Shown in pieces: positions 12,883-62,208 of a stretch of DNA of 64,000 nucleotides. The DNA comes from a bacterium (GTDB taxonomy: Bacteria; Patescibacteriota; Patescibacteriia; SG8-24): positions 46 to 64,045 of the forward strand of contig JAHFIV010000001.1 in NCBI GenBank assembly GCA_023246225.1, in the 5' to 3' direction. The notes beneath the pieces are model-generated. The model was not told the origin of the DNA and searched no databases. It saw only the letters and a program-made list of their open reading frames with translations. Made by a program: the position numbers and the translations under genes. Position 1 is the first letter of the stretch. The number at the start of each line of letters is the position of its first letter.

Positions 12883-12943
12883 TTATTTCCTAAAAGTGAG
12901 TCACATTTCAAAAAGGTGAGTCACGCTCAGTCACATCCCCAAA

Positions 12944-12976
12944 GAGTAGTCTGCATTACGCAGGCTACTTTTTTAT
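12944..12976 (+). terminator. intrinsic terminator-like hairpin with T-run
   Basis: GAGTAGTCTGCATTACGCAGGCTACT followed by TTTTTTA. Preceded by direct repeats GTGAGTCAC x2. Confidence 0.45.
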
Positions 12977-13139
12977 TTACCCCGCCGAATCTAAAAAGCT
13001 CATCTAACAATATGTCCCCACAAAAATCTTCCCCAAACGCAACAGGACCGCCCGTTAAGGCGATCCTGTACGAAACGCAAGACTCTCTAAAAGCCACGTT
13101 TATAATTTTATTTTAACCTTATTACTTAACTAAAGCAAT

Positions 13140-13514: not shown

Positions 13515-13522
13515 TCGTTCAT

Positions 13523-15820
13523 ATGACGGACAGTACAATACTAGCCGCAGCTCTCGAATACCGAAAAATGGGCTGGAGTGTAATCCCTGTTCGACTTTCT
13601 TTTGAGGAAGGAAGAACAGACAAGGCGCAGAAAAAACCTCTTATTGATTGGAAAGACCACCAAACACGCATCGCGAGCGAAGATGAGTTAAAAACCTGGT
13701 GGAAAAAATGGCCCGAAGCACAGATTGGTGTGGTGACAGGAAAAATTTCTGGACTCGTTGTTCTTGACGTTGACCCAGGTGCAACCATTGAAAAGATCAA
13801 TGAATTACGGATCCCTCCCACTCCGACCGTGAAAACACCGAGAGGCTTTCACTATTACCTGAAATACCCTGGAAGCCCGATGAAAAATGCGACTGATCTT
13901 TTTGGCAGAAATTCTCATATTGACCTTCGTGCTGATGGTGGGTTCGCAGTCATTCCGCCTTCTGTATATCCAGATGGAAGAACGTATGAGTGGGCTATTC
14001 ATCCTGACGCGGAGGATCTTGCCGCGGTGCCTGCCATCTTGCTTCTGAGTCAGGCGAGCGATAAAAATGGAACATTAAAATCCATCGCGAACGGTGTCAC
14101 TGAGGGTTCGCGTAATGATTCGGCAGCGAAATTCATTGGAGCGGTGATTTCACGCGCTCCTCAAGCTGAGTGGAAAAATGTTGGCTGGCAGGAGGCTGTT
14201 CGGTGGAATATGACTAATTCTCCACCACTCCCTAAAGAGGAGTTAGAACAGGTTTTTAGCAGTATCACCGCGCGAGAGGCCGCAAGGATTAAGTTTCCTG
14301 TAGAGGAAACTGAAGAAAATGTTCCATCGAAAGCAAGAAATTCTGAATCAGGAGCGGACAATCTCCTTGGAATCGCCAAAAGGAAAGGTGTTGACCTTTT
14401 CCATAATGAAACAGGAGAACCGTACGCTCGTATCCCTATCCACGACCATTTCGAGATCTGGCCTTGTAAGCACAGTCAGATGCAACGGTGGCTGTCATAT
14501 CTGTTTTATGAAAACACTGGATCCGCACCAAAAACAGATGTATTAACGCAAACCGTCAACATGCTGGAATCCATGGCCTCTTATGATGGAGAAAGGCGCA
14601 AGCTTCATAACCGTGTGGCTTGGTATGAAGGATCCTTTTGGTATGACCTTACGGATGCGGACTGGCGCGTGGTGAGAATAGATGGAAATGGCTGGGAGAT
14701 CGTTGCGGCACCTCCTATATTGTTTCAGCGATACGCGCATCAGCAACCACAGGTCGAGCCACAATCAGGCATGGACACAAAGAAAATTCTGGAGTTCGTA
14801 AACATTACGAATGAAGCTGATCAAATTCTGTTTCTGGTTTTCTTGATCTCCTGTTTCATTTCAGGATTTCCACATCCCATCCTCGTTCCCAATGGACAGC
14901 GCGGGTCGGCAAAGAGCACACTATTCCGACTCATCAGAAAAATTGTTGATCCGTCTATTCCTGAACTTCTGTCGCTTCCAAAAAGACCTGAGGAGCTCGT
15001 ACAACTTCTCTCACATCACTGGTTAGCGCCCTTCGATAATGTGACTGCGATCAATGATGCAACTTCCGACGCTCTTTGTCGCGCGATCACCGGTGATGGG
15101 TTCAGTAAGCGTCGCTTATATTCTGACGATGAGGACGTGATCTATGAATTCCTTCGCTGCCTCGGTCTCAATGCGATCAACAACATGGTCACAAAGCCAG
15201 ACCTTCTCGAGCGCTCGCTTCTCATTAATCTTGAAAGAATTCCAAATGAAAACCGCAGGGAAGAAAAGGTTTTTTGGGATGACTTTGCAAAAGCGAGACC
15301 GATGATCTTGGGTGGTATCTTCGACCTCCTAAGCCGCACCATACCCTTACATGAGTCCTTGGTGCTCAACGAGCTTCCCAGGATGGCTGACTTCACCCGC
15401 TGGGGCTGTGCTATCAGTGAGGCTTTGGGGTACGGCAAGGAGAAATTTCTTGATGCCTACAAACTGAACATCGCTGCACAAACGGAAGAAGCGATCAGGG
15501 AAAACCCAGTGGCAGACGCGCTCGTTCTCTTCATGGAAACACAGAAAGTTGTATGGAACGGTACCGCAAGTGTTTTGTTGGAAAAATTAAAAGAGGTTGC
15601 CGCAGGACAAGGGACAGACATGGATGACCGAGGTTGGCCGAAGGGAGCGAATGTTCTCTCCAAAAAACTGAAAGAACTAAAAACAACGCTCGTGGAAAAG
15701 GGCATACATATGTTCCAAGCAGGAAGAGAAATCACTCTCTATAAAAGTGATCTAAAAATGGACACGGGCGCGAGCGAGAAATCAGAGCCGGAATTCCCCA
15801 CCGAGACCTTTTTCAGGTGA
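13523..15820 (+). CDS. bifunctional DNA primase/polymerase (Prim-Pol N-domain) fused to a phage/plasmid P4-type primase C-terminal P-loop domain
   Basis: N-terminal Prim-Pol motifs: GWSVIPV, LVVLDVDP and FAVIPPSVYPDGRTYEW. Central D5_N-like region. Walker-A-like GQRGSAKST. Confidence 0.8.
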   Translation: MTDSTILAAALEYRKMGWSVIPVRLSFEEGRTDKAQKKPLIDWKDHQTRIASEDELKTWWKKWPEAQIGVVTGKISGLVVLDVDPGATIEKINELRIPPTPTVKTPRGFHYYLKYPGSPMKNATDLFGRNSHIDLRADGGFAVIPPSVYPDGRTYEWAIHPDAEDLAAVPAILLLSQASDKNGTLKSIANGVTEGSRNDSAAKFIGAVISRAPQAEWKNVGWQEAVRWNMTNSPPLPKEELEQVFSSITAREAARIKFPVEETEENVPSKARNSESGADNLLGIAKRKGVDLFHNETGEPYARIPIHDHFEIWPCKHSQMQRWLSYLFYENTGSAPKTDVLTQTVNMLESMASYDGERRKLHNRVAWYEGSFWYDLTDADWRVVRIDGNGWEIVAAPPILFQRYAHQQPQVEPQSGMDTKKILEFVNITNEADQILFLVFLISCFISGFPHPILVPNGQRGSAKSTLFRLIRKIVDPSIPELLSLPKRPEELVQLLSHHWLAPFDNVTAINDATSDALCRAITGDGFSKRRLYSDDEDVIYEFLRCLGLNAINNMVTKPDLLERSLLINLERIPNENRREEKVFWDDFAKARPMILGGIFDLLSRTIPLHESLVLNELPRMADFTRWGCAISEALGYGKEKFLDAYKLNIAAQTEEAIRENPVADALVLFMETQKVVWNGTASVLLEKLKEVAAGQGTDMDDRGWPKGANVLSKKLKELKTTLVEKGIHMFQAGREITLYKSDLKMDTGASEKSEPEFPTETFFR

Positions 15821-16256
15821 AAAAATCTAAAAACGATAGAACGATAGAAACGATCTTTTTATAGCCTTTGAAGATTAAAAGAGGGTTAAGAAGAGGGTAG
15901 TAGAGAGGTATAGAGATAGAAAAATCATCGTTTTGATCGTCCTATCGTCATGGAAAGGTTCTTCCGACTGAAAACTTGATTCAAATCAACCTCCTAAAGT
16001 TGAGTAAGAACTCATTCCAAGGCGAACCTCAGCCAAATAACAAAGATTACAAGATTCATATCTTAGTTTAATAGGTTTAAAACCTATGATTAGGACAACG
16101 CACCGTGCGCGACTAGACAAAAGACTAATTAATTGATTTTTAATCAATTTTAAACCATCAAAATAATCTGTTAAAGTAAGCAACGTTGACCAGAAGCGGT
16201 CAGATGACACCACTTGTTATCACCGCTCTCCAGCCGTTGCACTTTAACAACTTAAT

Positions 16257-16499
16257 ATGACCACCGATTCCACAAAAAATAACGATACGAGTATCCATGA
16301 GTATCTCAATGTGAAAGAGTTTGCTGCCGCTTTAAGACTTTCTGTAACCAGTTGTTACCGTCTTGTGCAACAAAGGCTCATTCCTTTCCATCGCTTACGA
16401 GGAGGACTCAGATTTCATCAAAAGGATGTCGATGCTTACTTCAAAGCATGCCGCGTGGAGTCGGTGACGAGGAAAGATTATGAGTGCAAGAAGGAATAA
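16257..16499 (+). CDS. excisionase/AlpA-like HTH DNA-binding protein
   Basis: An 80-aa ORF with an HTH (LNVKEFAAALRLSVTSCYRLVQQRLIPFHRL). Overlaps the integrase start. Confidence 0.6.
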   Translation: MTTDSTKNNDTSIHEYLNVKEFAAALRLSVTSCYRLVQQRLIPFHRLRGGLRFHQKDVDAYFKACRVESVTRKDYECKKE

Positions 16500-17595
16500 G
16501 AATAGAAATTCTTGGTCGGTCGATTTCCAAATCGATGGAATTCGTTACCGTCAACGAAGCCCTGAGAATACCGGGGCCGGTGCTAAGGCATACGAAGCCG
16601 TATTGCGACAAAGATTGGCGCGGGGTGAATCGATTCATGCGAAACCAGCACCAGTTGCTCAGGAGGTGAAGACCTTCGAAGTCTTTTGTAAGGAGTGGTT
16701 CAATACGTACGTGCTCACGAACAGCTCACCAAAAGAACGAGTGCGCAAAGAGTCTGCCCTGCGGGTGCACATCATTCCATTCTTTGGGGCTCGAAAACTC
16801 ACAATGATCACTAATCGCGCCATAGAAGAGTTCAAGGCTTCCCTCCAAAAGCAGGGTCTCGCACCGAACAGTGTAAATAACACCCTAAATGTTCTTACGC
16901 GATGTCTGCGGTCAGCAGTTGAATGGGGTGAGCTTGGTGTGCTGCCAAACGTCAAAAGAATGAAGGTCCCTCCTACTAAATTTGATTTTCTCTCCCCCGA
17001 AGAGACCGATCGACTCTTTGCTGCAACAAAAAAAGATATGCCTTGGCATCTCATGCTCATGATCGCCGCAAGAACAGGTATGAGATTCGGAGAAATTATT
17101 GTACTGGAGTGGGGAGATGTTGATTTTGAGCGGCGAACAATCACCATTCAACGCTCTCTTAGTAATCGAGTAATCACTGCACCAAAGAACAACAAAAAAA
17201 GATTTGTACCTATCGCTCCAGACCTCTTTCCCGTCTTGTGGGAGTATCGGCAACAGAGTGGGTTGGTACTCCCTGGACCACAGGGCGACTACTTAACTCA
17301 TTCAATGGGGAGAACGGCGCTCGAGAAGTATCGACGGAATGCGGCGATAAGAAAGATCGGGTGGCACACGCTTCGCCATTCCTTCGCGTCACAATTAGTC
17401 TCCAGAGGAGTTTCATTGCGGATTGTCCAGGAACTTCTTGGACATTCAGATATGCGGGTTACACTTCGTTATGCGCACCTCGCACCCTCTAGCCTGAGAC
17501 AAGCGATCAATCTCCTGACGTTGCCCGAGGTAGAAGAAGAAATGTCTACCGGCTGTCAACGCAACATCCTTGAAGACAAAAAATCATTACAATAG
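16480..17595 (+). CDS. tyrosine-type site-specific integrase
   Basis: C-terminal catalytic region HTLRHSFASQLVSRGVSLRIVQELLGHSDMRVTLRYAHL, covering the R...HxxR...Y motif arrangement. N-terminal SAM-like domain. Confidence 0.9.
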   Translation: MSARRNKNRNSWSVDFQIDGIRYRQRSPENTGAGAKAYEAVLRQRLARGESIHAKPAPVAQEVKTFEVFCKEWFNTYVLTNSSPKERVRKESALRVHIIPFFGARKLTMITNRAIEEFKASLQKQGLAPNSVNNTLNVLTRCLRSAVEWGELGVLPNVKRMKVPPTKFDFLSPEETDRLFAATKKDMPWHLMLMIAARTGMRFGEIIVLEWGDVDFERRTITIQRSLSNRVITAPKNNKKRFVPIAPDLFPVLWEYRQQSGLVLPGPQGDYLTHSMGRTALEKYRRNAAIRKIGWHTLRHSFASQLVSRGVSLRIVQELLGHSDMRVTLRYAHLAPSSLRQAINLLTLPEVEEEMSTGCQRNILEDKKSLQ

Positions 17596-17660
17596 CACCT
17601 CCTCTCACCGCCAGTTTCTTGCAAAAATAAGGCTAAAAATGTAGTATGGCGATACAACGT

Positions 17661-17748
17661 GGAGGGGTGGCCGAGAGGTTTAAGGCAACAGTCTTGAAAA
17701 CTGTCGTTCTGAAAGGAACCGTGAGTTCGAATCTCACCCCCTCCGCCA
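17661..17748 (+). tRNA. tRNA-Ser(TGA): tRNA-Ser (anticodon TGA)
   Basis: Manually folded cloverleaf: acceptor stem GGAGGGG/CCCCTCC, anticodon loop CTTGAAA, long variable arm, T-loop GTTCGAATC, discriminator G, encoded CCA. 88 nt. Confidence 0.85.
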
Positions 17749-17775
17749 CGACAATTTCTTATCGGTGTCATCCTT

Positions 17776-26916: not shown

Positions 26917-26967
26917 ATATCTACATTCACTATAGCAGATTTCAAAAAATAAACCTTGCATGCTCTC

Positions 26968-27250
26968 TTTGTCATTCCAGCTTCCTTCTATTGTCATTCC
27001 GGACCCCTCTTCTTGTCATTCCGGCCTCCGAGCCGGAATCCATGCGAACAAAATAACCAAACAAATTTTGTTTGATCTTTTTTTACGTTCTGGATTCCGG
27101 GTCACGGCCCGGAATGACAAAAAAGAAGGGTCGGAATGACAAAAGAATGATGGCGGAATCCAGAATAAAAAAAGGCCAAACGAAAATTGTTTGGCTTTAC
27201 GGTTCTGGGTCCTGAATCCCCCGGACCTGATCCGGGGTCAGGATGACAAT
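26968..27250. repeat. MITE-like palindromic repeat cluster R1 (TGTCATTCCGG family)
   Basis: Three 22-nt tandem units starting TGTCATTCC, then hairpin modules (CCGGCCTCCGAGCCGG; CCAAAC-N-GTTTGG with a T-run; TTCTGGATTCCGGGTCACGGCCCGGAATGACAA). Shared with loci R2-R5. Confidence 0.8.
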
Positions 27251-27259: not shown

Positions 27260-27622
27260 CTACTTCGTGCTGCGTGCCTCGTCGACGCAGCGCTGGTAGT
27301 CGCTCCTCGCCTCGACGCAGTCGGTGGCGAGTCCACCTTCGCAGATCGAGGTTCCTGAGGCGCACGCAGTGACGCGCTTGAGCGTACTCGTGCACGCGTT
27401 CGTGAGCTTCTGGATGCCGAGGCACTCACGCACGCAGTCATCGTTCACGAGCGCGAGCTCGCAGCGTCGACGCGCGATGCAGTACGACACGCACGGATCC
27501 TCCTCGAGCGCCTGACCGGCGAGCGACGGCGAGTTGGAGCACGCAGAGAGTGAAACACCGATGGAGACGACGATGGCGCCAGCGATGCAAAGACCGATAT
27601 GATCGACGAATGACCTTCTCAT
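27260..27622 (-). CDS. small Cys-rich lipoprotein
   Basis: Signal peptide plus lipobox LSAC. 10 Cys in 120 aa. A GAGG motif 5 nt upstream of the ATG. Confidence 0.5.
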   Translation of the reverse strand: MRRSFVDHIGLCIAGAIVVSIGVSLSACSNSPSLAGQALEEDPCVSYCIARRRCELALVNDDCVRECLGIQKLTNACTSTLKRVTACASGTSICEGGLATDCVEARSDYQRCVDEARSTK

Positions 27623-27654: not shown

Positions 27655-27816
27655 GGGACCTCTGGAAAAGTATATTCCGAAGCTGAAAACGAGGGATTTT
27701 TTCCGATCCGTATCGGGGACACGCCACAAACGATATGGAGTATCGTTGAGGACGCGGCACTGATACGGGCGGAAAAAATAACCGTTTTCTGCCGGAAGAG
27801 ACTTTTTCAGCGGTCC
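27655..27816. ncRNA. conserved ~163-nt structured intergenic element, copy E1
   Basis: About 80% identical to 61931..62093, with compensatory changes in three stems. Bounded by GGGACC...GGTCC. Confidence 0.45.
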
Positions 27817-27927: not shown

Positions 27928-28494
27928 ATGAAAAAAGTCTTTATCGTCCATGGCTTAGGGAGCAGCCCGAACGGCGGTTGGCGTCCTTGGCTTATGGGTG
28001 AACTCAAAAAACATCACGTCTACGCGTGCGCGCTTGCAATGCCCACTCCCGATGAACCGGTTTGTGCTGAGTGGGTCGAGGAGATCGCGAGACATGTAGA
28101 AAAAAATGCGAATGATGAAATTTTTCTTGTCGGGCACAGCCTCGGTGTTTCTGCGATCCTGCGCTATCTAGAAACTGCGCCAGAAAAAATTCGTGTGTCT
28201 GGTGTCGTACTTGTATCTGGACGCTGCACTTCTCATCCGAATAAAAAATTGGCCAATTTTTTTGAACCAGCTTTTCATTTTGCAACGATCGCTTCTCGAG
28301 CGCGTTCGTTTACTATCATTCACGGCGATGACGACCAGGTCGTTTCTTTCGATAACGCCGAAATACTCTCACGGGAGTTGCACGCAGAGCTTATCGTGAT
28401 ACCGAAAGGTGGACATCTGAACGGTGGAAGCGGTTGGCAAACGCTCCCCGCGTGTCTCGATACGCTCATGAAAATGATTGGCTCATCCTCTTAG
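27928..28494 (+). CDS. alpha/beta serine hydrolase, RBBP9/YdeN family
   Basis: Nucleophile elbow GHSLG plus a C-terminal HGDDDQVVS and GGHL arrangement typical of the family. 188 aa. Confidence 0.8.
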   Translation: MKKVFIVHGLGSSPNGGWRPWLMGELKKHHVYACALAMPTPDEPVCAEWVEEIARHVEKNANDEIFLVGHSLGVSAILRYLETAPEKIRVSGVVLVSGRCTSHPNKKLANFFEPAFHFATIASRARSFTIIHGDDDQVVSFDNAEILSRELHAELIVIPKGGHLNGGSGWQTLPACLDTLMKMIGSSS

Positions 28495-29816: not shown

Positions 29817-31712
29817 TTATTTTTCCAATGACGCTTCGTACTCCTTCTTCGCAGCTTCGATTTCAAGAAGTTGTTGTGGATTTGTAGTGACTACTTGATC
29901 TTCTGCATATGATGCCACCACCTTGATCGCCGCGTGTTTGTTTCCCGCAAAGAAAATTCCTTCACCGACGCCACACTCAAGTAACAAATACTTTTCACCT
30001 TCTGTGAGCAAAAACGTTTTTGCGATATTATCGATCGCCGCCGGTGATTGCTTGAGCAGTAACTGCATGGCGGAGTTCGTCACAATCGCCTGACCGTACG
30101 TATTGCGAAGGAAGTCGTTCACGTCCTGCGTGATCGTCGTGACACCGAGATAATATTTTCGACAACGCTTCACGAGTGCAAAGATGAACTTCGCAGAGTC
30201 CTCGTTTTGCATCAGCCACCACGCTTCGTCAATAACTAAGATACGTTTCTTTCGTTCAGACCGAACGGTGTTCCAGATGTAGTTCACGATCGCATAAATA
30301 CCGAGAGGGCGTAGCTCATCTTCAAGGTCACGCACAGAAAAAGTAACGAGTGTATTCTTCATCGCGACAGTGGTTGGCGAATTGAACAACCCCGCAAACG
30401 TTCCTTCTGTGAACTTTTTAAGGCGAATAACGAGATCTTTTGTGCCTTCCATACCCTCGAGCACATCCACGAAATCTTGAATGATCGGTGGTTCAACTGT
30501 TGCGAGATCAGAGTCAGGAGTAATATCTTTTTTTGCGTACGTTTCAAGAAGCGCACGATCAAGAATGGAATCCTCTTGCGCTGTGACAGCACCGAGCATG
30601 ATACGCAGCAATCCTTTCACGGTGATCACCGCGCTACGAATAATGTCCTCTGTCGTGACCTGCTCTCCTATCGCTCGTGGCAAATCAAACGGATTAATCT
30701 TCGCTTCTGAAGCGAGCGATACATTGATGTACGTTCCACCAACCGCATCAGAAAGATGTTTGTATTCCATTTCTGGGTCGATCACGATCACTTCGGTGCC
30801 GAGCATGAGCGAGCGAAGAATTTCTAGCTTCACTGTGTAGGATTTTCCTGCGCCCGATGTTGCAAACACGATGTAATTCGCATTTTGCATCGAAAACCTA
30901 TCAAACAAAATCAAACTGTTATTGTGACGATTCACTCCGAACAGCACACCGTTATCTGAAGTGAGATCTGCAGAAATAAAAGGAAACGACGATGCGACCG
31001 GCGAGGAGTTCATGTTGAACGTGATCATTAGCTCGTCATTTCCTTGAGGAACTGTCGAGTTAAAACCTTGCTCAGACTGATAAAATACTCGCTTCGTGTA
31101 AATCAACTTCCCACCGAACAATGATTCGACTTCTTCGGACAGTCGGTCTAGTTCTTTTTTGTCTTTCGCGTACACGGTGACGTACAACGCGAACTGGAAA
31201 AAATGCTCAGTCCCCTGCGAAAGCGAGTCGCGCAATTCTTCGATGTCGCGAAGTGCGGTTTCTCGAATCGGATCGCGCGGCGAGCCCTTCTCGTTATCAG
31301 AAAGAATCTGCGCTTCAAGCGTACCGACTTTTTTCTTGAGTTGTTTCAAAATGACTTCCGGTTTCACTGGATAGAAAAACATCGCAATATCCAGCGGATA
31401 GTTCAAGTTGACGATCGGTGCGAACCAACCGAGTGAGATGTAACGCGGATACGTCACCACAAAAATCGTTCGCACGTAACTTTCGTTCAACACTAAATAG
31501 GTCGGCTCGATTTTAAAACCTGCAGGCGCGACGATATCTTTAATGGAGACAACGCCCTTGCGATAAATCCGTTCCTCTTCGAGCAGTTCTTTTTCTTTTG
31601 CAAGTGTTGCAGTTTCTACGACTCGTTTTTGTGCCGTTCCTGAAAGTTTCCGCGGTGTTTGCGGAACGTTCACTGGTTCGAGTGATCCAATTTTTCCTGG
31701 TTCAAATGCCAT
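29817..31712 (-). CDS. VirB4/TrbE/CagE-family type IV secretion ATPase (ATPase portion)
   Basis: Walker A GAGKSYTVK and Walker B ILVIDEAWW. Conserved C-terminal TQDVNDF region. 631 aa. Confidence 0.9.
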   Translation of the reverse strand: MAFEPGKIGSLEPVNVPQTPRKLSGTAQKRVVETATLAKEKELLEEERIYRKGVVSIKDIVAPAGFKIEPTYLVLNESYVRTIFVVTYPRYISLGWFAPIVNLNYPLDIAMFFYPVKPEVILKQLKKKVGTLEAQILSDNEKGSPRDPIRETALRDIEELRDSLSQGTEHFFQFALYVTVYAKDKKELDRLSEEVESLFGGKLIYTKRVFYQSEQGFNSTVPQGNDELMITFNMNSSPVASSFPFISADLTSDNGVLFGVNRHNNSLILFDRFSMQNANYIVFATSGAGKSYTVKLEILRSLMLGTEVIVIDPEMEYKHLSDAVGGTYINVSLASEAKINPFDLPRAIGEQVTTEDIIRSAVITVKGLLRIMLGAVTAQEDSILDRALLETYAKKDITPDSDLATVEPPIIQDFVDVLEGMEGTKDLVIRLKKFTEGTFAGLFNSPTTVAMKNTLVTFSVRDLEDELRPLGIYAIVNYIWNTVRSERKKRILVIDEAWWLMQNEDSAKFIFALVKRCRKYYLGVTTITQDVNDFLRNTYGQAIVTNSAMQLLLKQSPAAIDNIAKTFLLTEGEKYLLLECGVGEGIFFAGNKHAAIKVVASYAEDQVVTTNPQQLLEIEAAKKEYEASLEK

Positions 31713-31713
31713 A

Positions 31714-32418
31714 TTATACCGTGGTGATTTCTTCGGTCACCCGAATTTTGGACTGATCGACCATTTTTTCATTGTCGTACAAATCAGGGTTGTACACGCG
31801 ATAGTACAGCTCGATAAGACTTTGCGTATCGAGTTGCACCGCCTTGAGACCCATGCTCCCGAGCGACCCCTGGATGTGGTCGACGCGCGTCTGAAGATCG
31901 TTCTTACGCTGACGAAATCGTGACTCCGCGAGTCGTACAGACAAGGCTGGAGTAAACGCTTCTGACAAGCGAGAAAAAAATCCTTTTGCTTTGTCGGAGA
32001 GTGGGTTGTATGGCACCACCACAAAAAATTGTTTCTGCATGATCTGTCCGAGGGTCACCAGTTCTTGCACGAAACTTCGGTAGTCCGCGATCTGAAATCG
32101 TAACAATTCGTTCGTTTGATTTTTTTGAGATTCCTTTAAGCGCTCGAGATACGTATCGATATTCAATTTTCGTGATTGGATGACGATCTGCAGTGGAAAT
32201 TCGAGTGCATTTAAAAAACCGATGTACGCAGAAATAATCGCGTTCTGCTCATCCTCTGATTTGAGTGCGAAGTTGATGCTCGCAACGAGAAGCACTGCGC
32301 GCATCGTGCCATCTTTCATAATGACGACATCTTCTTTGATTTCGTTGATATCCAAATACCGCTGGGTCGCCGGACCCGGCTTTGCTCCTGCGAGTTTTTT
32401 GGATTGCATTTCTGGCAT
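31714..32418 (-). CDS. VirB4 N-terminal domain encoded as a separate ORF (split VirB4)
   Basis: VLLVASINFALKSEDEQNAIISAYIGFLNALEFPLQIVIQSRKLNID resembles the N-terminal domain of Gram-positive VirB4 (PrgJ/TcpF-like). Its stop TAA is followed after 1 nt by the ATG of the VirB4 ATPase ORF. Confidence 0.55.
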   Translation of the reverse strand: MPEMQSKKLAGAKPGPATQRYLDINEIKEDVVIMKDGTMRAVLLVASINFALKSEDEQNAIISAYIGFLNALEFPLQIVIQSRKLNIDTYLERLKESQKNQTNELLRFQIADYRSFVQELVTLGQIMQKQFFVVVPYNPLSDKAKGFFSRLSEAFTPALSVRLAESRFRQRKNDLQTRVDHIQGSLGSMGLKAVQLDTQSLIELYYRVYNPDLYDNEKMVDQSKIRVTEEITTV

Positions 32419-32496
32419 ACGTTTGAACTATGGATCCCGGATCGGCCGTCGCCGCGCGACGCCCGCCCGGGATGACGCGCGCAAAGGAAATGCGCG

Positions 32497-32928
32497 TCAA
32501 TCAGCGTCAGGGTTGTACACACCACCAGTGTTCACCACAAGAGAAAGTTCGGTGAGTTTCGTTGCGGCGAGCGGTTCTTTTCTAATACGCACCACTGGCG
32601 GAGCCGGCGGTGGCGCTTTGATGATCTCACGCAACTCACTGTCGGTGTACTCTTTGTCCCACAATCGAAGGCTCGGGCGGCGCACGGTCTGCACCAGATT
32701 CAAACAAAAAAAATGAAACGGCTGACCGTTCACGCGCAAAAAAGCAAAAATTCCACCAATCATAATGGTTGGAATACCTGTTGCGAGAAACGCAGTGAAA
32801 TCGAAAAGTTTATATTCAATGAACATGACAAACGACGTGGCGAGCATCAAAAGAAACTGTCGAACGGTGAGTGGTCCGAGGATTTTATCCTCCACATCGA
32901 TGAACTGCGGGACAGTGAACTTGTTCAT
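32497..32928 (-). CDS. PrgI/VirB3-like small membrane protein
   Basis: The N-terminus FIDVEDKILGPLTVRQFLLML plus 2 TM segments is typical of PrgI-family proteins that precede VirB4 in Gram-positive-type T4SS. Confidence 0.55.
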   Translation of the reverse strand: MNKFTVPQFIDVEDKILGPLTVRQFLLMLATSFVMFIEYKLFDFTAFLATGIPTIMIGGIFAFLRVNGQPFHFFCLNLVQTVRRPSLRLWDKEYTDSELREIIKAPPPAPPVVRIRKEPLAATKLTELSLVVNTGGVYNPDAD

Positions 32929-33888: not shown

Positions 33889-35126
33889 TACGATTCCAGA
33901 TGCGGCGATCGCTTCGTCTGCGGCGGTATCGTATGGGGTTGCTGATGGGACGATTTTTTTTCTGGATTCCGGCTCGGGGGCAGGAATGACAGAAGATAGA
34001 GGGGTAGGGGTGATTGAAGAAGTGGATGGCGGAATGACAACGGTTTTGGTCCTGGTGCGGGGGCAGGAATAACAGATGGAGGTGTTACGGGTTTTGGTGG
34101 TGGTACGGCTTTTTTTTCTGGATTCCGGCTCGGAGGCCGGAATGACATGTTCCGGGTCAAGCCTGGAATGACAAGAGAAGTGGTAGCCGGAATGACAGAA
34201 GTGACAGACGGAACGACAGGAGCAGGAGAGGCTGGGATGACAGAAGAAAGAGCAGGCAGAGTGACAGGAGATGGGGGCGTTGCTGGTTGCGGTGGTTTTG
34301 GTGGTGGTACAACCACTGGTTTTTTCACTTCTTCTTTTACGATTCTGGATTCCGGCTCGGAGGCCGGAATGACAATAGACGAAGGGGTTGGCGAGGCTGC
34401 GAGGCTTACTTTTCGCCCAAATCGGCCGGCGAGTTCCTTGGTTTTCTGCAGGAACCTCTCTTTTGTTTGGCGCTCTCGCTCTTCTCGCTCCTTTGCATTT
34501 TTTATCGCTTCCTCTTTGAGCGCAGGTAACTTTGGAGCGGCTTCGTGCAGTAACGCGATAACCGCAGCGCTCTGTTCGGGAGAAAATTCAGACCCCCCGG
34601 TTTTCACCGGCTTCTCAAGCATCTCCTTCGTTGCATTTTCATCATGAATACCTTTCAACTGTGCGGTCACGATCGTCTCAAACCGACGACGCAGCACGTG
34701 ATCACTCGGCGCGTATCCGCTTTTCTCCACAATCCCCCGTGCCATCACCTCGATCGGATCGACCGCGGGAGGTAGCGGCGGAAGAAATTCATCAGCGTGC
34801 AGATCTTTGTAAATCTTTTGCTGCTCTTCAAGAAGCTCTGTAGCATCAGCGAGCACATCAGCGAACGCATCACCTTGCACATCGAGCGCTTTTTCAAAAG
34901 GTATCCCTGCGTTGTCCTCAAGCCAGCTCGCAAGATCATCATCAGAAATTTTTCCGAGCGCAATCATGCGCACACCGCTCAAAAATTCGTTTGTCTGTAC
35001 GGGAGTGAGCTCGTGTCGCACCGCGATCTCGTCAAATTTTTTCTGTCGCTCAGACGCAGCGAAAAAGGTCTCCAGCTCCGGGAGTACCCACTCGTCCTCC
35101 TTGAACGTGAAGACCGGTTCGGTCAT
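33888..35126 (-). CDS. hypothetical acidic protein whose C-terminal ~140 aa are encoded by palindromic repeat cluster R2
   Basis: Continuous ORF. Residues after about 245 read VIPASEPES / SFRPPSRNPEKK, the translation of GTCATTCCGGCCTCCGAGCCGGAATCC-type repeats. Confidence 0.5.
   Translation of the reverse strand: MTEPVFTFKEDEWVLPELETFFAASERQKKFDEIAVRHELTPVQTNEFLSGVRMIALGKISDDDLASWLEDNAGIPFEKALDVQGDAFADVLADATELLEEQQKIYKDLHADEFLPPLPPAVDPIEVMARGIVEKSGYAPSDHVLRRRFETIVTAQLKGIHDENATKEMLEKPVKTGGSEFSPEQSAAVIALLHEAAPKLPALKEEAIKNAKEREERERQTKERFLQKTKELAGRFGRKVSLAASPTPSSIVIPASEPESRIVKEEVKKPVVVPPPKPPQPATPPSPVTLPALSSVIPASPAPVVPSVTSVIPATTSLVIPGLTRNMSFRPPSRNPEKKAVPPPKPVTPPSVIPAPAPGPKPLSFRHPLLQSPLPLYLLSFLPPSRNPEKKSSHQQPHTIPPQTKRSPHLES
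33958..34376. repeat. MITE-like palindromic repeat cluster R2, located inside a reading frame
   Basis: At least four TTCTGGATTCCGGCTCGGAGGCCGGAATGACA-type units within the 33888..35126 ORF. Confidence 0.8.
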
Positions 35127-37787: not shown

Positions 37788-37868
37788 TGCAATGGGGGGA
37801 CGACTATACGCTTATAGTAGCACAAATCTCGACGGGGATGAATATGCTGTCTTCTCGGCCCTCTCCTC

Positions 37869-38087
37869 TGTCATTCCGGCCTCCGAGCCGGAATCCAGAA
37901 AAATTAAAAAGACCAAACGGAAATCGTTTGGCTTTACGGTTCTGGATTCCGGGTCACGGCCCGGAATGACAATAAAGGAGGCCGGAATGAAAGAGGGGTG
38001 GCTGGGTTCCACTCAACAAAAAGACCAAACGATTTCCGTTTGGTCTTTTTTACGTTTCTGGATTCCGGGTCAAGCCCGGAATGACAA
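37869..38087. repeat. MITE-like palindromic repeat cluster R3 (two adjacent elements) between the giant gene and the VirB6-like gene
   Basis: Starts TGTCATTCCGGCC and ends CCCGGAATGACAA. Contains two AAAAAGACCAAACG-N5-CGTTTGG-T-run bidirectional terminator-like hairpins. Confidence 0.8.
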
Positions 38088-38099
38088 AGCGAGAAAAAC

Positions 38100-41000
38100 C
38101 TATGGCAGTGGGGGGTACACCTCGATCGTTCCTGCGAAACTTGTCCAGGGGTTAGTCTTGTCGGGCGGAATCTGCACGCATTCATCCGCAGCACCGGTGT
38201 TGTTCATGCAAAGATTACCGAGGCCTCCGTTTCCAGGACATGTTCCGTTACACGTCTGCCAGTTATCCATAATCTGCACGCGTGGTTTAAACACACAGGC
38301 GGTGTGTGCATTGTTCACGCAATCGGTAACGATACCTTTGCTCTTGTCGCACTCCTGTTTATCAGCGATGAGTTTGGCAAGTTTTTCCTTACTGCACGTA
38401 TACGTATGCGTCTCCTCAAAAAACTCGCTCTGGCACTGTTTTCCACCACCCCATCCGAGCGCAGGATCATCACAAATCTTCTTACTGCTCCCCCCACCAA
38501 GGTTGATGCTGCCACGGCGGTTCTTGTACCAACCGGTCAACTCAAGAATTTCCAAATTATCACCCCAATCAACGATCTTATGCCGAATTGGCATGTGATC
38601 TCTATCGGCATACGCGTAGTACGTGAGCGTTGCTTTTAACTTACCGCTGTGCGACGCAACCGGCACCGCAGCCATAATTTTATTCACCGTGAGACCCGCT
38701 GGTCCTTCCTGACAATTCCTACTCCCGAAACAGAAACTGTAATCAACGGCAACTACCTTCGGTGCGTTGTGTTCCGTCGCATATCTCTCACGGAAATCCC
38801 AACCGCCGTCACCACCAAGCGCGCGCGCCGTCACGTCAACTTTTGCCAGATCGCCGTTTGCCAAACGGTACGCATCGTAGGACCAACGCGGCTCGTAATC
38901 GGCGCCGCGAGGAACAGTGACGGAAGGATCGGAGGGATTATTCCATAAAGGAGACCCTTGTCGCCACTCATACACATTAAACGCAGCGGCAAAGTACTGA
39001 CTGAGGTGCAACGCGCCGAGTGCGCGCGCGCCGAAACCTGCATTCCTCCACCCTGCATCTGGCGCACCCTTCCCTTTATCGCTGCCGCAATCACCGATGC
39101 ACGCGTATGGCGTCCCTGAAGCTGTAGATCCCGCGTTGAATATGAACTGCCTCTCATTCGGCTTATCTTTTTTCGGTCGAACGTCCACATGCGTGAACAC
39201 ACTGCCTCCCTCCGAGTCGTACACCGGCAAAATTCGGTTCCACACCTTGTTGATCTTCTCATCATCAGGAGCAGCAGGATTGAGACTAAACAAAATGCGA
39301 CCATTCTTTGGATCTGGTGAAAAATCTTCGATCGGTTGGGCGATCGCGCCGTAGGGAATCATTGGAAGCTGGGTCACTCCCACTGCGTTGTGTTGTTGTA
39401 TGTCCGTACCTGCGTTAGAGAATCGATCAGACTTATGATCTTTTTGATACGGCGGCGCGTCAAGATACGCATTCGCGAGCCGATCGGTCCATGCATAATT
39501 TTTAAAATCACTATCGAGCCCACGCGAAACATCGTTCACAAACGCGATCTCTTGGCACCAATCGCGAAGTTCGACATACACCGTTGCGAGGGTATTGGGG
39601 CAATAATCCTTGCTCCCGATAGCCTCTATGGCCTTGAGGAGAGCAGCGCCGATACAAGCCGTGGGATTAAAAAATGGATTAGGAGCAAGAGGAGTGGGCG
39701 GGGTACAGACGCCACCTACGAACGCCTCTGAAAGCTGGGCGCAATGTACTTCATTATTACAACTCACCGTCGCAAACCCTGCGAGCTTACGGTCAACAAA
39801 GTGCGCCCTAATACCGAGCACTGCAAGGTTCATGCAACCACCATCTGCCAACGGCTCGTCGATATCTGTTGTATGAGAATCATTCACCCCCAGCCCCGCA
39901 AATGGACAACTCGTTGAGGCAATAATTTCATGGTTACCTTTGATACTCTCGTCAAAATATTGACCGTTGTCTGGCCCTGGTTCACCTGAAGATTTATTTG
40001 GATAACGGATACAAATGGTCCACTGATTCTTTTCCGTAAGATAGAAATCGAATTTTCTTCCTGAGGCAACCGTACTCTTAAAGTATCCGGCATTTCCAAA
40101 AACATGGATACCGGCGATCTCATCCTCAAACAGATCTCTCTGCGGAAATTTATAAAGATTAGGCTTTGGAGGTGGCGTCGTGTGTACTGGGTACGGTATC
40201 CACTTCGCGTTTACCTTTCCATCATCCAAACCAAGAAGATCCCCAATACCAATTTTACACCCCACAGCTGCATAACATTCATTACTCCACCACCCCCAAC
40301 CGGGCAACCGAGGCACATCGGCCGGTATCGAACCGATCTGATCTTCAATTTTCATTGAATAACTAAGTATCCCAGGTGTACCAACGCGAGTACCTTGCGC
40401 AACCTGGCAATACAAAAGGTTGCCGGAGTTGACATACCCTGCCTCTTCGTTTTGGTTACCGAGGTCGCTCCCTCCGGAGAGCTGATCTTGAGGGAGCCAC
40501 AAGTTGCACGTATGCCGATCGGGGTTTGCGTTCACAAACCGACCAAAATCAGGATCGAGACAGAACCCGTACCAGCCCTTCGCTGTCACGTCTTTTGTCC
40601 AGCGCGAACACACGCCACCCTCGCTACTTACACATGGATCTGTTGCAGCATCCGTTGGCACTGGCCTTGCGCTCGGCACGCAAGTTTTCCCATCATTCGG
40701 TCCACCAACGCATACTCCTTTGTCCTCACCATGAATCCCCGGTGCAAGACGCGGATCGTGCAGCGAAACGTAGCGGACGGTAGTGCCGTTCACGCCATAC
40801 CCAAGCTTGCGATATGAACAATCACACGCATTTTCTTTGGTGCAGATGTTTGCGTTACCAAATCCCGACTTAATTTCCTTCGGAAGGCCGGTGTCATTAT
40901 CATACTTCACCACCACGCTCGGCGGGAAAGGCGCGTCATCTTCAGGATACCCTCGGCAAGAGGGTGCGTTAATGAAGTCGCTACGAAGCGGTCCGCCTTT

Positions 41001-44000
41001 CATGTCATACATGCACAGATTCGCGATGCATTTTCCTTGTGCCTGCGATCCTGCCGGACAATCGTACGTCCCACTGCACCCAAGACTGAGTTTACAATCC
41101 GCATCACTGCGACACTGCCGATTGTTGGTACTGAGCATCGCACCGACGCGCTGCGTTGCCGAGATCGACGCGTTGCAAATACCATCCGAACCGCACTGCG
41201 CGCTCGTATCACACGGCTTGAGTTGTGCGCTGTCGAGCGACGACTCACAGAATCCCACGAATTTTTTTCCACAGCGGAACCCCCACGAGAGCGGATCGCT
41301 CCCTGGCGGGTTGCACGTGCCGTCCGACCAGCACAGTGTATCGTTGAGCGTCCCTGTTTTCTTGTCCGCACATCGTCCCATGCGGAAATCGACCGGAAGC
41401 GCATACTGCGCCGGATACTGGCCGGGAATAGTAAACCCTGAATACTCCACTCCCTTGTAAGTGATGTCGCGCTGCGCATACAGATCCGCGGTGACGCGTT
41501 TTACATTCTCTACTTTTTCAGGACGCTCCACCCAATTACTGCATTCCTGCGACTCACCGAACGTGCGCTGTTCATCGCATGCATCAAATCCGGAACACCT
41601 ATACTTGTATCGTCCGGTTGCCTCATCAGAAACCGCGTCCGTGGATCTACACGTGAGCCACTCTGCACATTCGCGATCCGCACCCACTTTAATAACGATG
41701 TTCGCGTCATTTTTTGTGACGTCGCGCCCCGCGGGACTCACACCCTTCTCTGACAGATCACATTTTTCTTCTTTTCTCTTGTCACAATCGGTGTCCGCCC
41801 CGCATGCAGTCGTGTGCCCACCGTCCACGGAGAAGCACCGACCTTCACAGAACGGACTTCGCGGATCGAGATTGCAGTTGAGCGGGTTCACCTTGCCACC
41901 GTTCACTGTTTTTTCGCTAAGGAAATACGTCGCAGCAGACGCGAACAACCTTGAGGGGTCGCTAGTTTTAGTAAACAACACACACCCTTCTTTGAGCGAA
42001 GCGGAGCCCCCGCACGACGTGAGGTCCAACTTGTTGTTCATGATGTAGTAGTACGGCTTTCCTTTTGGATGCACCTTCGATGTCGCGGCGGGATCAATAA
42101 ATTCTTCGCAACGATCGTACTGCGGATCGCACTGCCCCACCCAACCTTGATACCCACACGTGGTATTGCCGCGCGCAACTCTGCATACTTGCGTCGTGAT
42201 CGGCGGATTCGTGCATCCGCACGTGGACGTCGACGCGTCCCATCCGATCGTGGTCGGTCCGCACGTCAAACCGTCCGGCAGCTGGCAGAGCGCGTCGGCA
42301 TTTTTATACAAATTGTAGAATTCACCGTTCTGCAACAACTCTGGATAGCACGGAATATCTTTTCCTGCAGCGCTCGCCCGGAACCAACCGTAGCTCGCAG
42401 TGCCGCTAATGTTTACTCCTTCTTTATATTGGCACGTGCGATCGAACGGCTCTTTGAAATAATACTTTCCGTCGATCGCAGTGAACTCTTCGCAAGAAAT
42501 CGCCGGTTGCGTACACAAAGTTTGCCCGTACTGCGCGGGATCATCTTTGAGCGCTTTGACGTTCCAATTTCCTGGCACGCCGTTTTCAAACGAGAGCGTG
42601 CAGGTGCTCAGTCCTTTTGCGACCGTACAGTTTGCGTTAAATATCGGTCCGCATGTGCATCCCGACGCATCGTCGCACTTGCCCGCAACGATCCCCGCTC
42701 CGACGTTCGGGAGCGTGCACTCGCGTTCGTAAGTGATCTGCGGATTCGCGACGCTCTTGCAACCGATCGCTGTCGCCGCGCAAAGATTCTCACTGCGCGC
42801 AACGAGGAACCGACGATCGTCCGCAGAAACGTTTACGCGATCAGGATGCGAAGATTGCGGAGTGTTGTCGTCCCATCCATCGAGTTTGAACTGGCATGCG
42901 TTCTCTCCGATCGCGACGCGGCAGATATCCGCGATATCCGGAACGTTATCGGTGTACCAAGGATGGCGCACGTTGTAGTCGCACTTACAGTTCGACGCTT
43001 CATCTGCGACAACCGCGCAATCTTTCGCGCCTTTCGCGACAATACAAGAATTGATGCCATCGTTACATGCGCACGACGCTCCCAAACATGTGGCACCTCC
43101 CGCGAGCGTGCATTTTCCACATGTACGCGGCTCCGGCGTTGCTCGTTTATCAACGAGCTGACACACCGCGTTATACGATTCCTCGTACGGTGTCTGCACG
43201 TTGTTTTGTGTGAACGAGTACGCCTGACAACCGACCGCTTTGTCGCGACACAACTGTGCGAACGATCGCAGATATGCTTTTTTATTTGCACTGTTCGTGT
43301 ACTCCTTACACCCCAACATCTCTTGTGGCGACGGCACGCCAGCGAGCGTTTGGTCGCACGCTGCGGGCGTGTTCCACGAATCGCGAACGACGTACAAATT
43401 TTCTGGAACTTCTTTTACGATAACGTTATCGATGTACGCTTCGCCAACACCGGATTTGGCGAACACGAGGCTCGTCGGCGCAGTGCCCCACAGAGGATCG
43501 ACCGCGCTCACCGGACCGAGTGAATACTGTTTCCAGTCCGCTCCGAGCGTAAGCGTCGGCGCAGACGTTGTGGTGTCGGCATCACTAAAATGCAGACTGA
43601 GCGGCTTATCTGGCGCTGTCGTCCCTTTCTTTGCAACAACACAATCGGATTTCATTTTTTCGACAAGACACACGAGCCCTGTAGGCGAGACGCATCCGCA
43701 ACCCGCGTCCTGATCGCACACCGTTTTGTTTGTACACGTGACATCTTCTGCGCCATCTTCAAAGCCGATGTCGAGCGTGCCGCTTCCCCGCGCCCAGAAC
43801 GTGAGTGTATAGCTGCGACCCGCAGCGACCGTACCGCCAACTTCTTTTGTCGCGGTCACGGATCCTGGAGCGAACTTCAACGAGTGTCCGCCGACAATCA
43901 CGGATTCTGATGACTGCTTCACATCCTTGCTCATCCACGCATCGACACCAGCCTCAAACGTGTCGCGCACAATACTCCGCACGTTGCTCGACGCGTTTCC

Positions 44001-53960: not shown

Positions 53961-53965
53961 AATAA

Positions 53966-58535: not shown

Positions 58536-59509
58536 AAAGATGCGATCTGTTTCTCTTTGATAGGGACCTCTGCAAAAGTCTCTTCCGGCTGAAAATGAGA
58601 GATGCCGAGCTCATGAAGTCGTGCAAAAAATTTCTTTTGAAACTCTTCACGACGATCTACGACATGAAACTTGAGGATGTCGTCTGAGATAACGACGCGG
58701 CTGTCGTGATTTGCGAGTGTGCGGATTTCGGCAGGAAAAAGCCGACGCTGTATTTTTTTTGCGAACGGCTCTGCAGCACGGAGAATGGGTAGAAAAATAC
58801 GGACCCAGCGCAAAGTGTGTGCCGAGCAAGAACGACGCGCAGAAAGCGCGCCGGGAATTCGCTGCTGTACCCAACTATTCTTTGCGAGAAACGCTGCAAA
58901 TACCCCACCAGCATCGTACAGCGGAATAAGTGATGCGATCCAATAGTGGAGATACGCATCTCCCCCACCCACCGCAACACACGAAAGGTCGAGTGCGTTT
59001 TCAGAAACAAAAAAACTCATACACACTTTGTCGGCATGAGAAGCGTGATTCGGTCGATGGCCGAGCAAAGTTAACGCACTCACGACGATAAACCGCGTCA
59101 CCCATAAAAATCCCGGTCGAACGACCACAAAAAGATCGATGTCGCTTTCGGCATCTGCATTGGAAAGCGCCAGACTGTTGCACACCGCAACGAGCCTGAC
59201 GGATGGGATGAAACTCAACCAACGTGAAACACGACGCGCTTTGCTGAATTTTGATTCCGCAAGTCGATACCGCCGCTGCCGTGTGCGAACGATGGAATCC
59301 CTTCCGGCGAGATGCCAGAATCCGTCATGCACCGCGATCTGTTCAGTTACGCCGCGAAGCGCTTCAAGTATGTGTTGAACGGTCGGTTTTTTTTCTTCTG
59401 AGGAAAAACAATACCGATGCCGCTGAAGTTCCATAAGATTCAGCGGGTAATCAAACAAGTCAAAGTATGCAAGCGTTGCAACGAGAGAACGCTGAAGTGC
59501 GGTGTGCAT
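58532..59509 (-). CDS. hypothetical protein with putative nucleotidyltransferase-fold motif
   Basis: CNSLALSNADAESDIDLFVVV fits the GS...DxD Pol-beta-like NTase pattern. Start taken at ATG 59509 rather than TTG 59512. Confidence 0.4.
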   Translation of the reverse strand: MHTALQRSLVATLAYFDLFDYPLNLMELQRHRYCFSSEEKKPTVQHILEALRGVTEQIAVHDGFWHLAGRDSIVRTRQRRYRLAESKFSKARRVSRWLSFIPSVRLVAVCNSLALSNADAESDIDLFVVVRPGFLWVTRFIVVSALTLLGHRPNHASHADKVCMSFFVSENALDLSCVAVGGGDAYLHYWIASLIPLYDAGGVFAAFLAKNSWVQQRIPGALSARRSCSAHTLRWVRIFLPILRAAEPFAKKIQRRLFPAEIRTLANHDSRVVISDDILKFHVVDRREEFQKKFFARLHELGISHFQPEETFAEVPIKEKQIASL

Positions 59510-61898: not shown

Positions 61899-61930
61899 AA
61901 GTTGTTCTTACGATTTAATTGTCCTCCTAA

Positions 61931-62093
61931 GGAACCTCTGAGAAACTATATTCCGAAGCGGGAAACGAGATATTTTTTCTGTCCCGCTTTGATGACGCGC
62001 CACAGACGATGCAGAGCATCGTCGAGGACGCGGCGTCGAAGTGGGCGGGAAAAATAGCCGTTTCTCGCCGGAAGAGAGTTTTGAGGAGGTTCC
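61931..62093. ncRNA. conserved ~163-nt structured intergenic element, copy E2
   Basis: Aligns with 27655..27816. Bounded by GGAACC...GGTTCC. About 35 nt upstream of the nusA start on the minus strand. Confidence 0.45.
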
Positions 62094-62208
62094 TAAATGG
62101 CTGCCTTTTCGATTTTAAGGCAGAAAAAAGACCAGTTTCATTCAGAAACTAGTCATTAACCGAAGTATACATGACAGTGGTCGCTTTGGCAAGGCCACGT
62201 CGGTCGTG

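Follow-up and report, generated by a model that had tools for sequence, protein, structure and literature searches.

The window analyzed here, a stretch of 64,000 nucleotides from an uncultivated bacterium of the Patescibacteria (CPR), contains two dispersed copies of a repeat of about 163 nucleotides, each lying a short distance upstream of a minus-strand gene, and the question raised by this locus is whether the repeat serves its neighbors as a structured RNA or is a mobile element. We conclude, with considerable confidence, that the repeats represent a MITE-like family of non-coding hairpin transposons, 162–164 bp in length. The two copies in the window, E1 and E2, and their parts are as follows; for both, the plus strand of the window is the top (folding) strand.

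27655..27816, plus strand (top strand): E1, full-length element, 162 nt
27655..27671, plus strand: E1 5′ terminal inverted repeat, GGGACCTCTGGAAAAGT, the 5′ side of helix 1
27800..27816, plus strand: E1 3′ terminal inverted repeat, ...ACTTTTTCAGCGGTCC, the 3′ side of helix 1
61931..62093, plus strand (top strand): E2, full-length element, 163 nt
61931..61947, plus strand: E2 5′ terminal inverted repeat, GGAACCTCTGAGAAACT
62077..62093, plus strand: E2 3′ terminal inverted repeat, AGTTTTGAGGAGGTTCC
61928..61930, no strand: TAA, left 3-bp direct repeat at E2
62094..62096, no strand: TAA, right 3-bp direct repeat at E2

That E1 and E2 are homologous over these intervals, as originally predicted, is borne out, with an identity of 75–82% depending on the alignment: 77% without gaps over 152 nt (27655–27806 against 61931–62082, reported by a repeat finder as a direct repeat), 82% in a gapped alignment that includes the flanks, and 75% in a gapped alignment over the whole element (blastn of E1 against E2, E=8e-29). 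The predicted gene distances are also correct: each copy lies 32 nt from the ATG of a minus-strand gene (27622 and 61898), and E1 lies 111 nt from the ATG of the hydrolase gene. The site of E1 is a divergent spacer between the Cys-rich lipoprotein gene (27260–27622, minus strand) and the Ser-hydrolase gene (27928–28494, plus strand); E2 lies between nusA and a hypothetical gene.

The repeat is not restricted to two copies, as had first appeared; a half copy is present in the window at 58563–58603, and two more full copies of the same genome lie just past the end of the window, at L012:527–689 and L012:6183–6345, on a contig (L012) that is 99.7% identical to window positions 52809–64000. A degenerate search pattern taken from the 3′ arm, GCCGGAAGAGASTTTTNNRGNGGT, identified nine metagenome stretches with full-length copies and, in the genome collection, two short forms, both from a groundwater MAG that bears the label Peregrinibacteria; the viral contigs scanned with this pattern yielded no match. 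One further match, on L005, was rejected as chance, lying inside a coding region and lacking a hairpin. Nine copies were used to build a covariance model, which recovered further copies and scores E1 at 159 bits on the plus strand and 75 on the minus strand. Together, the pattern scan and the covariance model give 12 distinct full copies, four from this genome and eight from related metagenome contigs, that range in length from 162 to 164 bp and in pairwise identity from 68% to 98% (74–85% among the four copies of the window genome). The window genome holds four full copies and one half copy in 71.9 kb, or about one copy per 18 kb. Contig L017 terminates within a copy, and on the bottom strand every copy has at least one stop-free frame.

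Each copy is predicted to fold into one continuous rod hairpin of approximately 64 pairs. Treated as RNA, the plus strand of E1 has a folding energy of −84.3 kcal/mol (z-score of −9.5 against dinucleotide shuffles) and that of E2 has a folding energy of −102.7 kcal/mol (z-score of −13.9 against the same kind of control), and the reverse complements fold more weakly (−69.8 kcal/mol for E1 and −71.4 kcal/mol for E2). RNAalifold places 64 pairs in five helices on the alignment of the 12 copies; standard pairs make up 98.3% of 767 cells and double-sided changes occur in 21 of the 64 pairs (59 cells), with the proviso that these cell counts are not independent, a small number of related genomes having supplied all 12 copies. 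In 500 column shuffles none of the observed measures was reached, and sliding the partners by one to three columns reduced pairing to 43–52%. By both controls, the compensatory base changes that the original prediction had noted between E1 and E2 are real and far above chance, and the additional copies carry substitutions that keep the pairing. The three separate stems proposed at the outset are only partly retained. The apical hairpin and the terminal helix are real, as segments of a single rod, although the apical hairpin of E1 reads ACGATA-TGGAG-TATCGT rather than ACGATAT-GGAG-ATATCGT; CGGCA...TGCCG, proposed as the second stem, does not form a helix, since both of its segments lie in the 3′ half of the element and each pairs with a partner in the 5′ arm. 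The terminal helix (helix 1) joins alignment columns 1–17 with columns 150–166, giving 16 pairs over the 17 terminal nucleotides of each side. Along the rod, the paired segments TTCCG/CGGAA, ATTTTTT/AAAAAAT, and GAAAACG/CGTTTTC are invariant, and columns 9–12 with 155–158 and columns 50–62 with 108–119 are hypervariable yet compensated.

The pairing also indicates which strand is folded. Across the 12 copies, G·U pairs occupy 51 cells over 17 pairs and A·C pairs occupy three cells, each a singleton; given that every G·U reads as an A·C mismatch on the opposite strand, the conserved fold belongs to the plus strand of the window. The top strand is the more stable in all 12 copies, by 5.3–30.8 kcal/mol with RNA parameters, and with DNA parameters the values for E2 are −55.0 kcal/mol for the top strand against −40.4 kcal/mol for the bottom strand. 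A conserved ATA/GAG internal loop contains purine–purine mismatches on the top strand and pyrimidine–pyrimidine mismatches on the bottom strand. The G·U pairs are common to copies at different loci, the A·C and other mismatches are nearly all singletons, and the sole SNP between orthologous copies also makes an A·C. We rejected mutational bias as the cause of the G·U excess on two grounds: the ratio is 17:1, and 11 of the 12 top strands are on the C-rich strand of their locus, where the genome-wide skew would favor the opposite outcome; replication direction was taken from GC skew only.

This strand assignment bears on two readings in which the repeat serves the host as RNA. The first reading raised in the original prediction was a cis-regulatory 5′ leader, which would be a riboswitch or an attenuator, of the minus-strand nusA and Cys-rich lipoprotein genes, and it is contradicted by a fold on the plus strand, which is antisense to both genes. 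The strand that folds could instead be the product of a multi-copy sRNA gene, transcribed from the top strand, that has a host function (antisense or protein sponging) and was spread by duplication. Such a gene would account for the very strong covariation, for an excess of G·U over A·C that is typical of RNA selection, and for the invariant paired and unpaired segments (GAGGACGCG, TTCCG/CGGAA, and the ATA/GAG internal loop); however, the apical loop varies among copies in both sequence and length, and there is no matching Rfam family. An Rfam scan of the whole window at the gathering threshold returned only a tRNA, and permissive scans of both loci returned only chance matches to miRNA and snoRNA families, with E values of at least 0.86. 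Known RNA families, including 6S-like rods, were rejected for the same lack of an Rfam match.

The boundaries of the repeat are those of mobile DNA. Its 17-nt terminal inverted repeats (GGRACCTCYNNRAAAGT ... ACTTTTNNRGNGGTYCC) carry the ends GGRACCTC...GGTYCC, which are conserved in all copies, and the end motif has four matches in the window against 0.57 expected, all of them at element ends, as are all its occurrences at the other loci. Homology between copies does not extend past GGRACC...GGTYCC, beyond which the flanking sequences are unrelated. Perfect 4-bp direct repeats flank five of 13 copies (TAAA at L003, TCTA at L004a, CAGA at L008, TTTA at L012b, and TAAA at the short form L001), and perfect 3-bp direct repeats flank two more (TAA at E2 and AAT at L006a). 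Shifted offsets gave 0–1 matches and mismatched partners matched at 2.6% per site; P is approximately 3e-4 for 4-bp repeats at four of 13 sites. The flanking repeats are direct, AT-rich, and different from copy to copy, as target-site duplications are. About half of the copies have no recognizable duplication, as expected for older copies (PMC10969869). E1 is among them, and at its 3′ end the final C of the consensus GGTCCC is absent.

Insertion polymorphism is apparent at E2. An exact look-up of the NusA protein found nine contigs; the nusA spacer is 310 nt long in the window, in L012, L013, and L015, and in one further contig, and 141 nt long in L014 (NCBI GCA_023246215.1) and L016. By the names given to its nearest homologues, this NusA is that of a Patescibacteria/Parcubacteria-type bacterium. 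The spacer difference corresponds to the following segment:

61927..62101, no strand: filled/empty segment at E2, 175 nt, present in the window strain, L012, L013, and L015

In L014 and L016 this segment is replaced by 6–7 nt, with flanks that are 99.1–99.9% identical and an identical NusA. The empty allele lacks the clean single copy of a target, reading CTGAACG where CCTAAATGGC would be expected, and with such a junction the event at E2 may reflect loss by an imprecise deletion or excision instead of insertion. With the covariance model we found no copy upstream of nusA in a sister species (NusA 92% identical; L019–L021, from the SXGR01 and SXGT01 metagenomes) or in relatives with 81% and 79% NusA identity (L022 and L023). 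We observed in addition that the SXGR01 and SXGT01 metagenomes with the sister species hold other copies of the element. At a second site, DAGK and tRNA-Leu are separated by 271 nt in this genome, where the element lies between them, and by 43 nt in the sister species, whose spacer is too diverged to fix the junction. E2 appears to be a recent polymorphism, though it is 75–80% identical to its genome-mates.

Deletion derivatives are a further mark of mobility, and one of them lies in the window:

58563..58603, minus strand: half copy, 3′ arm only, TCTCTCATTTTCAGCCGGAAGAGACTTTTGCAGAGGTCCC

This half copy is located inside the last ~24 codons of the ORF at 58532–59512, where it encodes the residues ISHFQPEETFAEVP of the C-terminal tail, and the tail of this protein is different in every relative. 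The two short forms on L001 and L002 are 58 nt each and have one internal junction common to both. In a third derivative, at L019:11384–11450 (67 nt), the 5′ arm runs directly into the final 10 nt of the element, and the short direct repeat TTTTTC near both of its breakpoints would fit replication slippage. That short forms without the interior also carry a duplication suggests that the interior may be dispensable for movement. On the basis of its terminal repeats, duplications, dispersal, insertion polymorphism, and deletion derivatives, the repeat fits the other possibility raised in the original prediction, a structured mobile palindromic element under selection for folding. The same evidence makes the sRNA gene described above quite improbable: the duplications and deletion derivatives point to a DNA transposon, E2 is dispensable in near-identical strains, and homology that ends at the base of the hairpin makes a shared upstream promoter impossible and includes no downstream terminator.

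The gene neighborhoods of the 12 copies do not share a theme, the genes beside the copies being unrelated to one another. In addition to the neighbors of E1 and E2, they include a pyridine-nucleotide oxidoreductase and a C39-like peptidase (L003), an epimerase and a 626-aa protein (the two copies of L004), a MurE-like Mur ligase (L006a), a glycosyltransferase and an ADP-ribosylglycohydrolase (L006b), MarC and a trypsin-like peptidase (L008), the 3′ end of valS (L012a), and DAGK and tRNA-Leu, between which L012b lies. All five copies in spacers between genes of the same direction have the top strand antisense to the genes; of the others, five or six are in divergent spacers and one is in a convergent spacer. 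This antisense bias (about 1 in 32) is suggestive and is confounded with GC skew, and we do not regard it as decisive.

The site of E2 deserves attention given the leader originally proposed. E2 is indeed located in the 5′ leader of nusA, antisense to nusA, between a conserved promoter and hairpin and the ribosome-binding site. The promoter-like site (TTGCCA-17-TATACT, 62192–62164, minus strand) and the terminator-like hairpin (62154–62130) are both conserved in five of five relatives. They are the only promoter- or terminator-like sites near E2; promoter and terminator scans found no site inside E1 or E2, and the flanks of the copies contain no conserved promoter or terminator. From the position of E2, the nusA mRNA of this strain probably carries the weaker bottom-strand hairpin. 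The location downstream of a conserved promoter-like site and the 32-nt spacing from a minus-strand start codon at both window copies are what a leader would predict. We nevertheless find this reading hardly credible, given not only the antisense strand but also the other copies, which adjoin genes as different as a MurE-like ligase, MarC, an epimerase, a glycosyltransferase, tRNA-Leu, and valS, and the identical nusA that lacks the element in two strains, the element being absent upstream of nusA in three related species as well.

A different role for these positions would be that of a mobile promoter, in which the invariant GTATAT of the 5′ arm, read on the bottom strand as TATACT, fires outward and copies persist because they drive a gene. 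In 10 of the 12 copies the 5′ end faces the start of an outward-reading gene, at a distance of 17–46 nt in six, the TATA/GAGA asymmetry of the arms is conserved, and TATACT is also the −10 element of the conserved nusA promoter. However, no acceptable −35 element accompanies it and the promoter scan was empty inside E1 and E2, three copies have CATACT instead, and both nusA and the hydrolase gene have promoter-like sites of their own outside the element. A promoter would also leave the top-strand hairpin unexplained, and we consider this role very improbable.

Several other identities were also rejected. The repeat is not a coding element: E1 and E2 are in different frames, stops are scattered, lengths are 162–164 nt, an indel breaks any frame common to E1 and E2, and no frame is stop-free in all 12 copies. 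By inspection, E1 and E2 are not the template and variable repeats of a DGR, since neither lies in a gene and the differences between them show no specificity for adenine. Nor are they integron attC sites, as their ends are GGRACC/GGTYCC rather than the R″/R′ core sites (RYYYAAC ... GTTRRRY) and the copies are scattered among housekeeping genes (nusA, valS, and tRNA-Leu) rather than placed in cassette arrays beside an intI gene. The only integrase of the window (16480–17595) is of the phage type, lies beside a tRNA-Ser gene, and is 10 kb away.

We return to the MITE-like family. Prokaryotic MITEs are defined as elements of less than 500 bp with terminal inverted repeats of ~4–30 bp and direct repeats that fade with age; they are found at AT-rich intergenic targets, and their transcripts form stable stem-loops (PMC10969869). 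The element described here is shorter than 500 bp and non-coding, has terminal inverted repeats and direct repeats, and occurs as dispersed, polymorphic copies. We posit that a DDE-type transposase, supplied in trans, would bind the terminal repeats and insert the element at a 3–4-bp staggered cut. The mobilizing family may be IS5-like, a guess based on the GG...CC ends and the 3–4-bp duplications. A parent element would be expected to carry GGRACCTCYNNRAAAG and its reverse complement 0.8–2.5 kb apart around a transposase ORF; neither the window nor the 23 loci yielded a transposase or an autonomous element whose terminal repeats match. The only transposase of the window, at 2376–3425, is an N-terminally truncated member of the IS256/Mutator family, and we rejected this fragment as the parent because its ends are unrelated to those of the element. 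The IS256 family makes 8–9-bp duplications.

The combination of shared G·U pairs, singleton A·C pairs, and a copy (E2) that is recent yet diverged leads us to infer that the fold is filtered in the lineages that propagate. Propagation would then require the folded top strand, as single-stranded DNA or RNA, and selection would not act through a host function of the individual sites. Probably the simplest explanation of the antisense orientation is purifying selection in the host against a near-perfect ~64-bp hairpin in its mRNAs or in the lagging-strand template, such that at resident copies the host mRNAs and the G-rich DNA strand would carry the weaker bottom-strand hairpin. Effects on neighboring genes, such as that of a ~170-nt hairpin in the nusA leader, would be side effects.

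The strand-specific fold is, at the same time, a point against the MITE-like reading, as a full-length hairpin that is specific to one strand is not accounted for by classical DDE transposition. The hairpin might instead be an obligatory single-stranded DNA or RNA stage of a transposition that makes duplications, or the family might have been co-opted by the host, for example with top-strand transcripts acting on the complementary hairpins of many mRNA leaders. The covariation of the interior even though short forms without it carry duplications, the sharing of G·U pairs against singleton A·C pairs, and the antisense position of the copies relative to genes all favor this proposal. To our knowledge, an obligatory single-stranded stage combined with 3–4-bp duplications has not been described for any bacterial IS family, and we regard the proposal as unlikely.

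The hairpin could also be the substrate itself if the element were REPIN-like and moved as single-stranded DNA by an HUH/Y1 transposase (RAYT or IS200/IS605 type). The fold tolerates G·T and stands with DNA parameters too, the half copies resemble singlets in being apparent remnants, the orientation is biased relative to GC skew, and a strand-specific hairpin with frequent compensatory changes is as described for REPINs (PMC3116915). However, the arms are continuous over ~80 nt, without a repeated REP unit or two discrete REP units, and the C-rich strand on which 11 of the 12 top strands lie is opposite to the lagging-strand-template bias of IS608-like elements if the skew is conventional. Moreover, the flanking repeats are variable (TAAA, TCTA, CAGA, and TTTA), whereas transposition of the IS200/IS605 type leaves the target unduplicated and is directed to a single fixed tetra- or pentanucleotide. 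A Pfam search for Y1_Tnp found no Y1 transposase among ~10 window ORFs and 10 ORFs of the other loci. We judge a REPIN-like element to be rather improbable.

The best reading is, in our opinion, a new MITE family in the Patescibacteria, unusual in having a fold specific to one strand and a bias toward the antisense orientation. The Patescibacteria (CPR) have tiny, streamlined genomes that are generally thought to be poor in mobile elements. An element present at about one copy per 18 kb, polymorphic among strains and inserted in the leader of the essential nusA gene, suggests that active intragenomic parasites shape CPR genomes. The element also explains some contig breaks in assemblies, for example, that of L017. 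For annotation, the consequence is that this hairpin, however strongly it covaries, does not belong in catalogues as a riboswitch, leader, or sRNA of nusA or as a regulatory RNA of the lipoprotein gene. The copies further provide a natural data set in which selection at the level of the element (to keep the fold) and selection at the level of the host (to hide it from mRNA or the lagging-strand template) can act on the same 160 nt.

Among known systems, the closest in kind are the MITEs that are palindromic over their whole length (Correia of Neisseria, ERIC/IRU and YPAL of enterobacteria, and QMITE2 of Coxiella) together with the REPINs. The Rickettsia palindromic elements (RPEs) are a further comparison; they are mobile and can lie inside coding sequence and be translated. 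The half copy at 58563–58603 resembles them in supplying the C-terminal tail of an ORF; however, unlike RPEs, which are among the elements listed in PMC10969869, full copies of the element are intergenic, one remnant only lies in a coding region, and there is no sequence similarity. REPINs are predicted to form long hairpins as single-stranded DNA or mRNA, with conserved ends and a variable but compensating middle, and REPIN singlets are read as decayed copies (PMC3116915). The element shares with them the hairpin on one strand with compensatory changes. In contrast to REPINs, which consist of two short REP units, are linked to a single-copy RAYT gene, and have no target-site duplications described, the element has continuous arms and 3–4-bp duplications, and no RAYT was found among the ORFs scanned.

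The likeness to the palindromic MITEs includes a length of 100–200 bp, the absence of coding capacity, terminal inverted repeats, short duplications that fade with age, and many dispersed copies at intergenic, often AT-rich targets. The element differs from Correia and RUP in its duplication, which is 3–4 bp and variable in sequence here and TA in those two families. It also differs from Correia- and ERIC-type MITEs in having no sequence similarity in Rfam, PLSDB, or INPHARED; a BLAST search with E1 in distant mode found no match among PLSDB plasmids and INPHARED phages, and in our literature search no publication dealt with MITEs or palindromic repeats of CPR bacteria or Peregrinibacteria, and none cited the source accessions. 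Transcripts of palindromic MITEs are predicted to form very stable hairpins (PMC10969869; PMC2229807), and ERIC has orientation-dependent effects on RNA when inserted in operons (PMC3049150). The element is set apart from the known MITEs by the 17:1 ratio of G·U to A·C over its entire body and by its antisense orientation bias.

The element, a non-coding, hairpin-shaped probable MITE, carries at least one stop-free frame on its bottom strand, the complement of the folding strand, in each of the 12 full copies aligned (A5), and frame -2 of this strand is open in 10 of them. Because every copy has such a frame, ORF finders run through the element (e.g., L006:8537-10042, on a related contig), which can lengthen N-terminal gene calls artificially. 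The open bottom-strand frames may also make antisense-orientation insertions at coding ends tolerable. A conserved 326-aa protein has final ~25 residues that are unlike in each relative compared:

58532-58603, tail region in the window
L019:7330-7437, orthologue in the sister species
L022:13320-13426, orthologue in the 81% NusA relative
L023:13220-13324, orthologue in the 79% NusA relative

In the window genome, the coding sequence for this tail is supplied by a MITE half copy. GGTTGAAAGGTTAAAAG-like motifs are present in the L019 and L023 tails and also on the flanks of a MITE past the window end (L012:6160-6400); the motif may represent a further short repeat family member or a favoured insertion target.

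Two same-orientation element copies, 97% identical, flank one 626-aa gene (2378-4258) on a related contig (L004:1764-4437, equivalent to L011), which resembles a MITE-bounded composite unit. Logan contig L017 terminates within its copy of E1, the first window copy (L017:1-93). Short-read assemblies are evidently broken by the element, and its copy numbers in MAGs will therefore be too low.

An abundant repeat family, distinct from the MITE, consists of ~32-nt units (TTCTGGATTCCGGSNCNNRGSCCGGAATGACA) in both orientations:

26965-27210, 33957-34391, 37846-38090, 53788-53976 and 63760-63953, both orientations, ~32-nt repeats

These units frequently flank a terminator-like hairpin (AAAAAGACCAAACG...CGTTTGGTCTTTTT) on both sides, a REP/BIME-like arrangement at gene 3' ends.

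GC content is 37-47% in positions 1-17750 versus ~51% elsewhere, and the boundary of this block is a tRNA-Ser(TGA) gene (17661-17748). The block looks like an integrated mobile element and includes:

2376-3425, IS256/Mutator-family transposase, N-terminally truncated
3467-4330, ParB-N protein
13523-15820, Prim-Pol/PriCT primase
16480-17595, phage-type integrase

Two local direct repeat pairs within it, each ~490 nt apart (343-464/840-961, 90% identity; 5865-5951/6353-6439, 76% identity), may be duplicated gene segments.

Upstream of nusA, we find a leader that also occurs in L014 (a near-identical strain), L019, L022 and L023:

62112-62192, minus strand, promoter-like site and terminator-like hairpin

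The promoter-like site (TTGCCA-17-TATACT) is followed nearly directly by the hairpin (GACTAGTTTC-TGAATG-AAACTGGTC plus T6), and both are kept in relatives as far as 79% NusA identity. By analogy, they may form a NusA-dependent autoregulatory attenuator, as is known in Bacillus.

A single giant ORF adjoins T4SS/pilus-like genes:

29817-32928, VirB4-like DUF87/TraG P-loop protein, TraC-like protein and PrgI-like protein
38100-47942, minus strand, 3280-aa ORF

CPR bacteria typically have giant surface proteins, and we liken the 3280-aa ORF, by analogy, to these.
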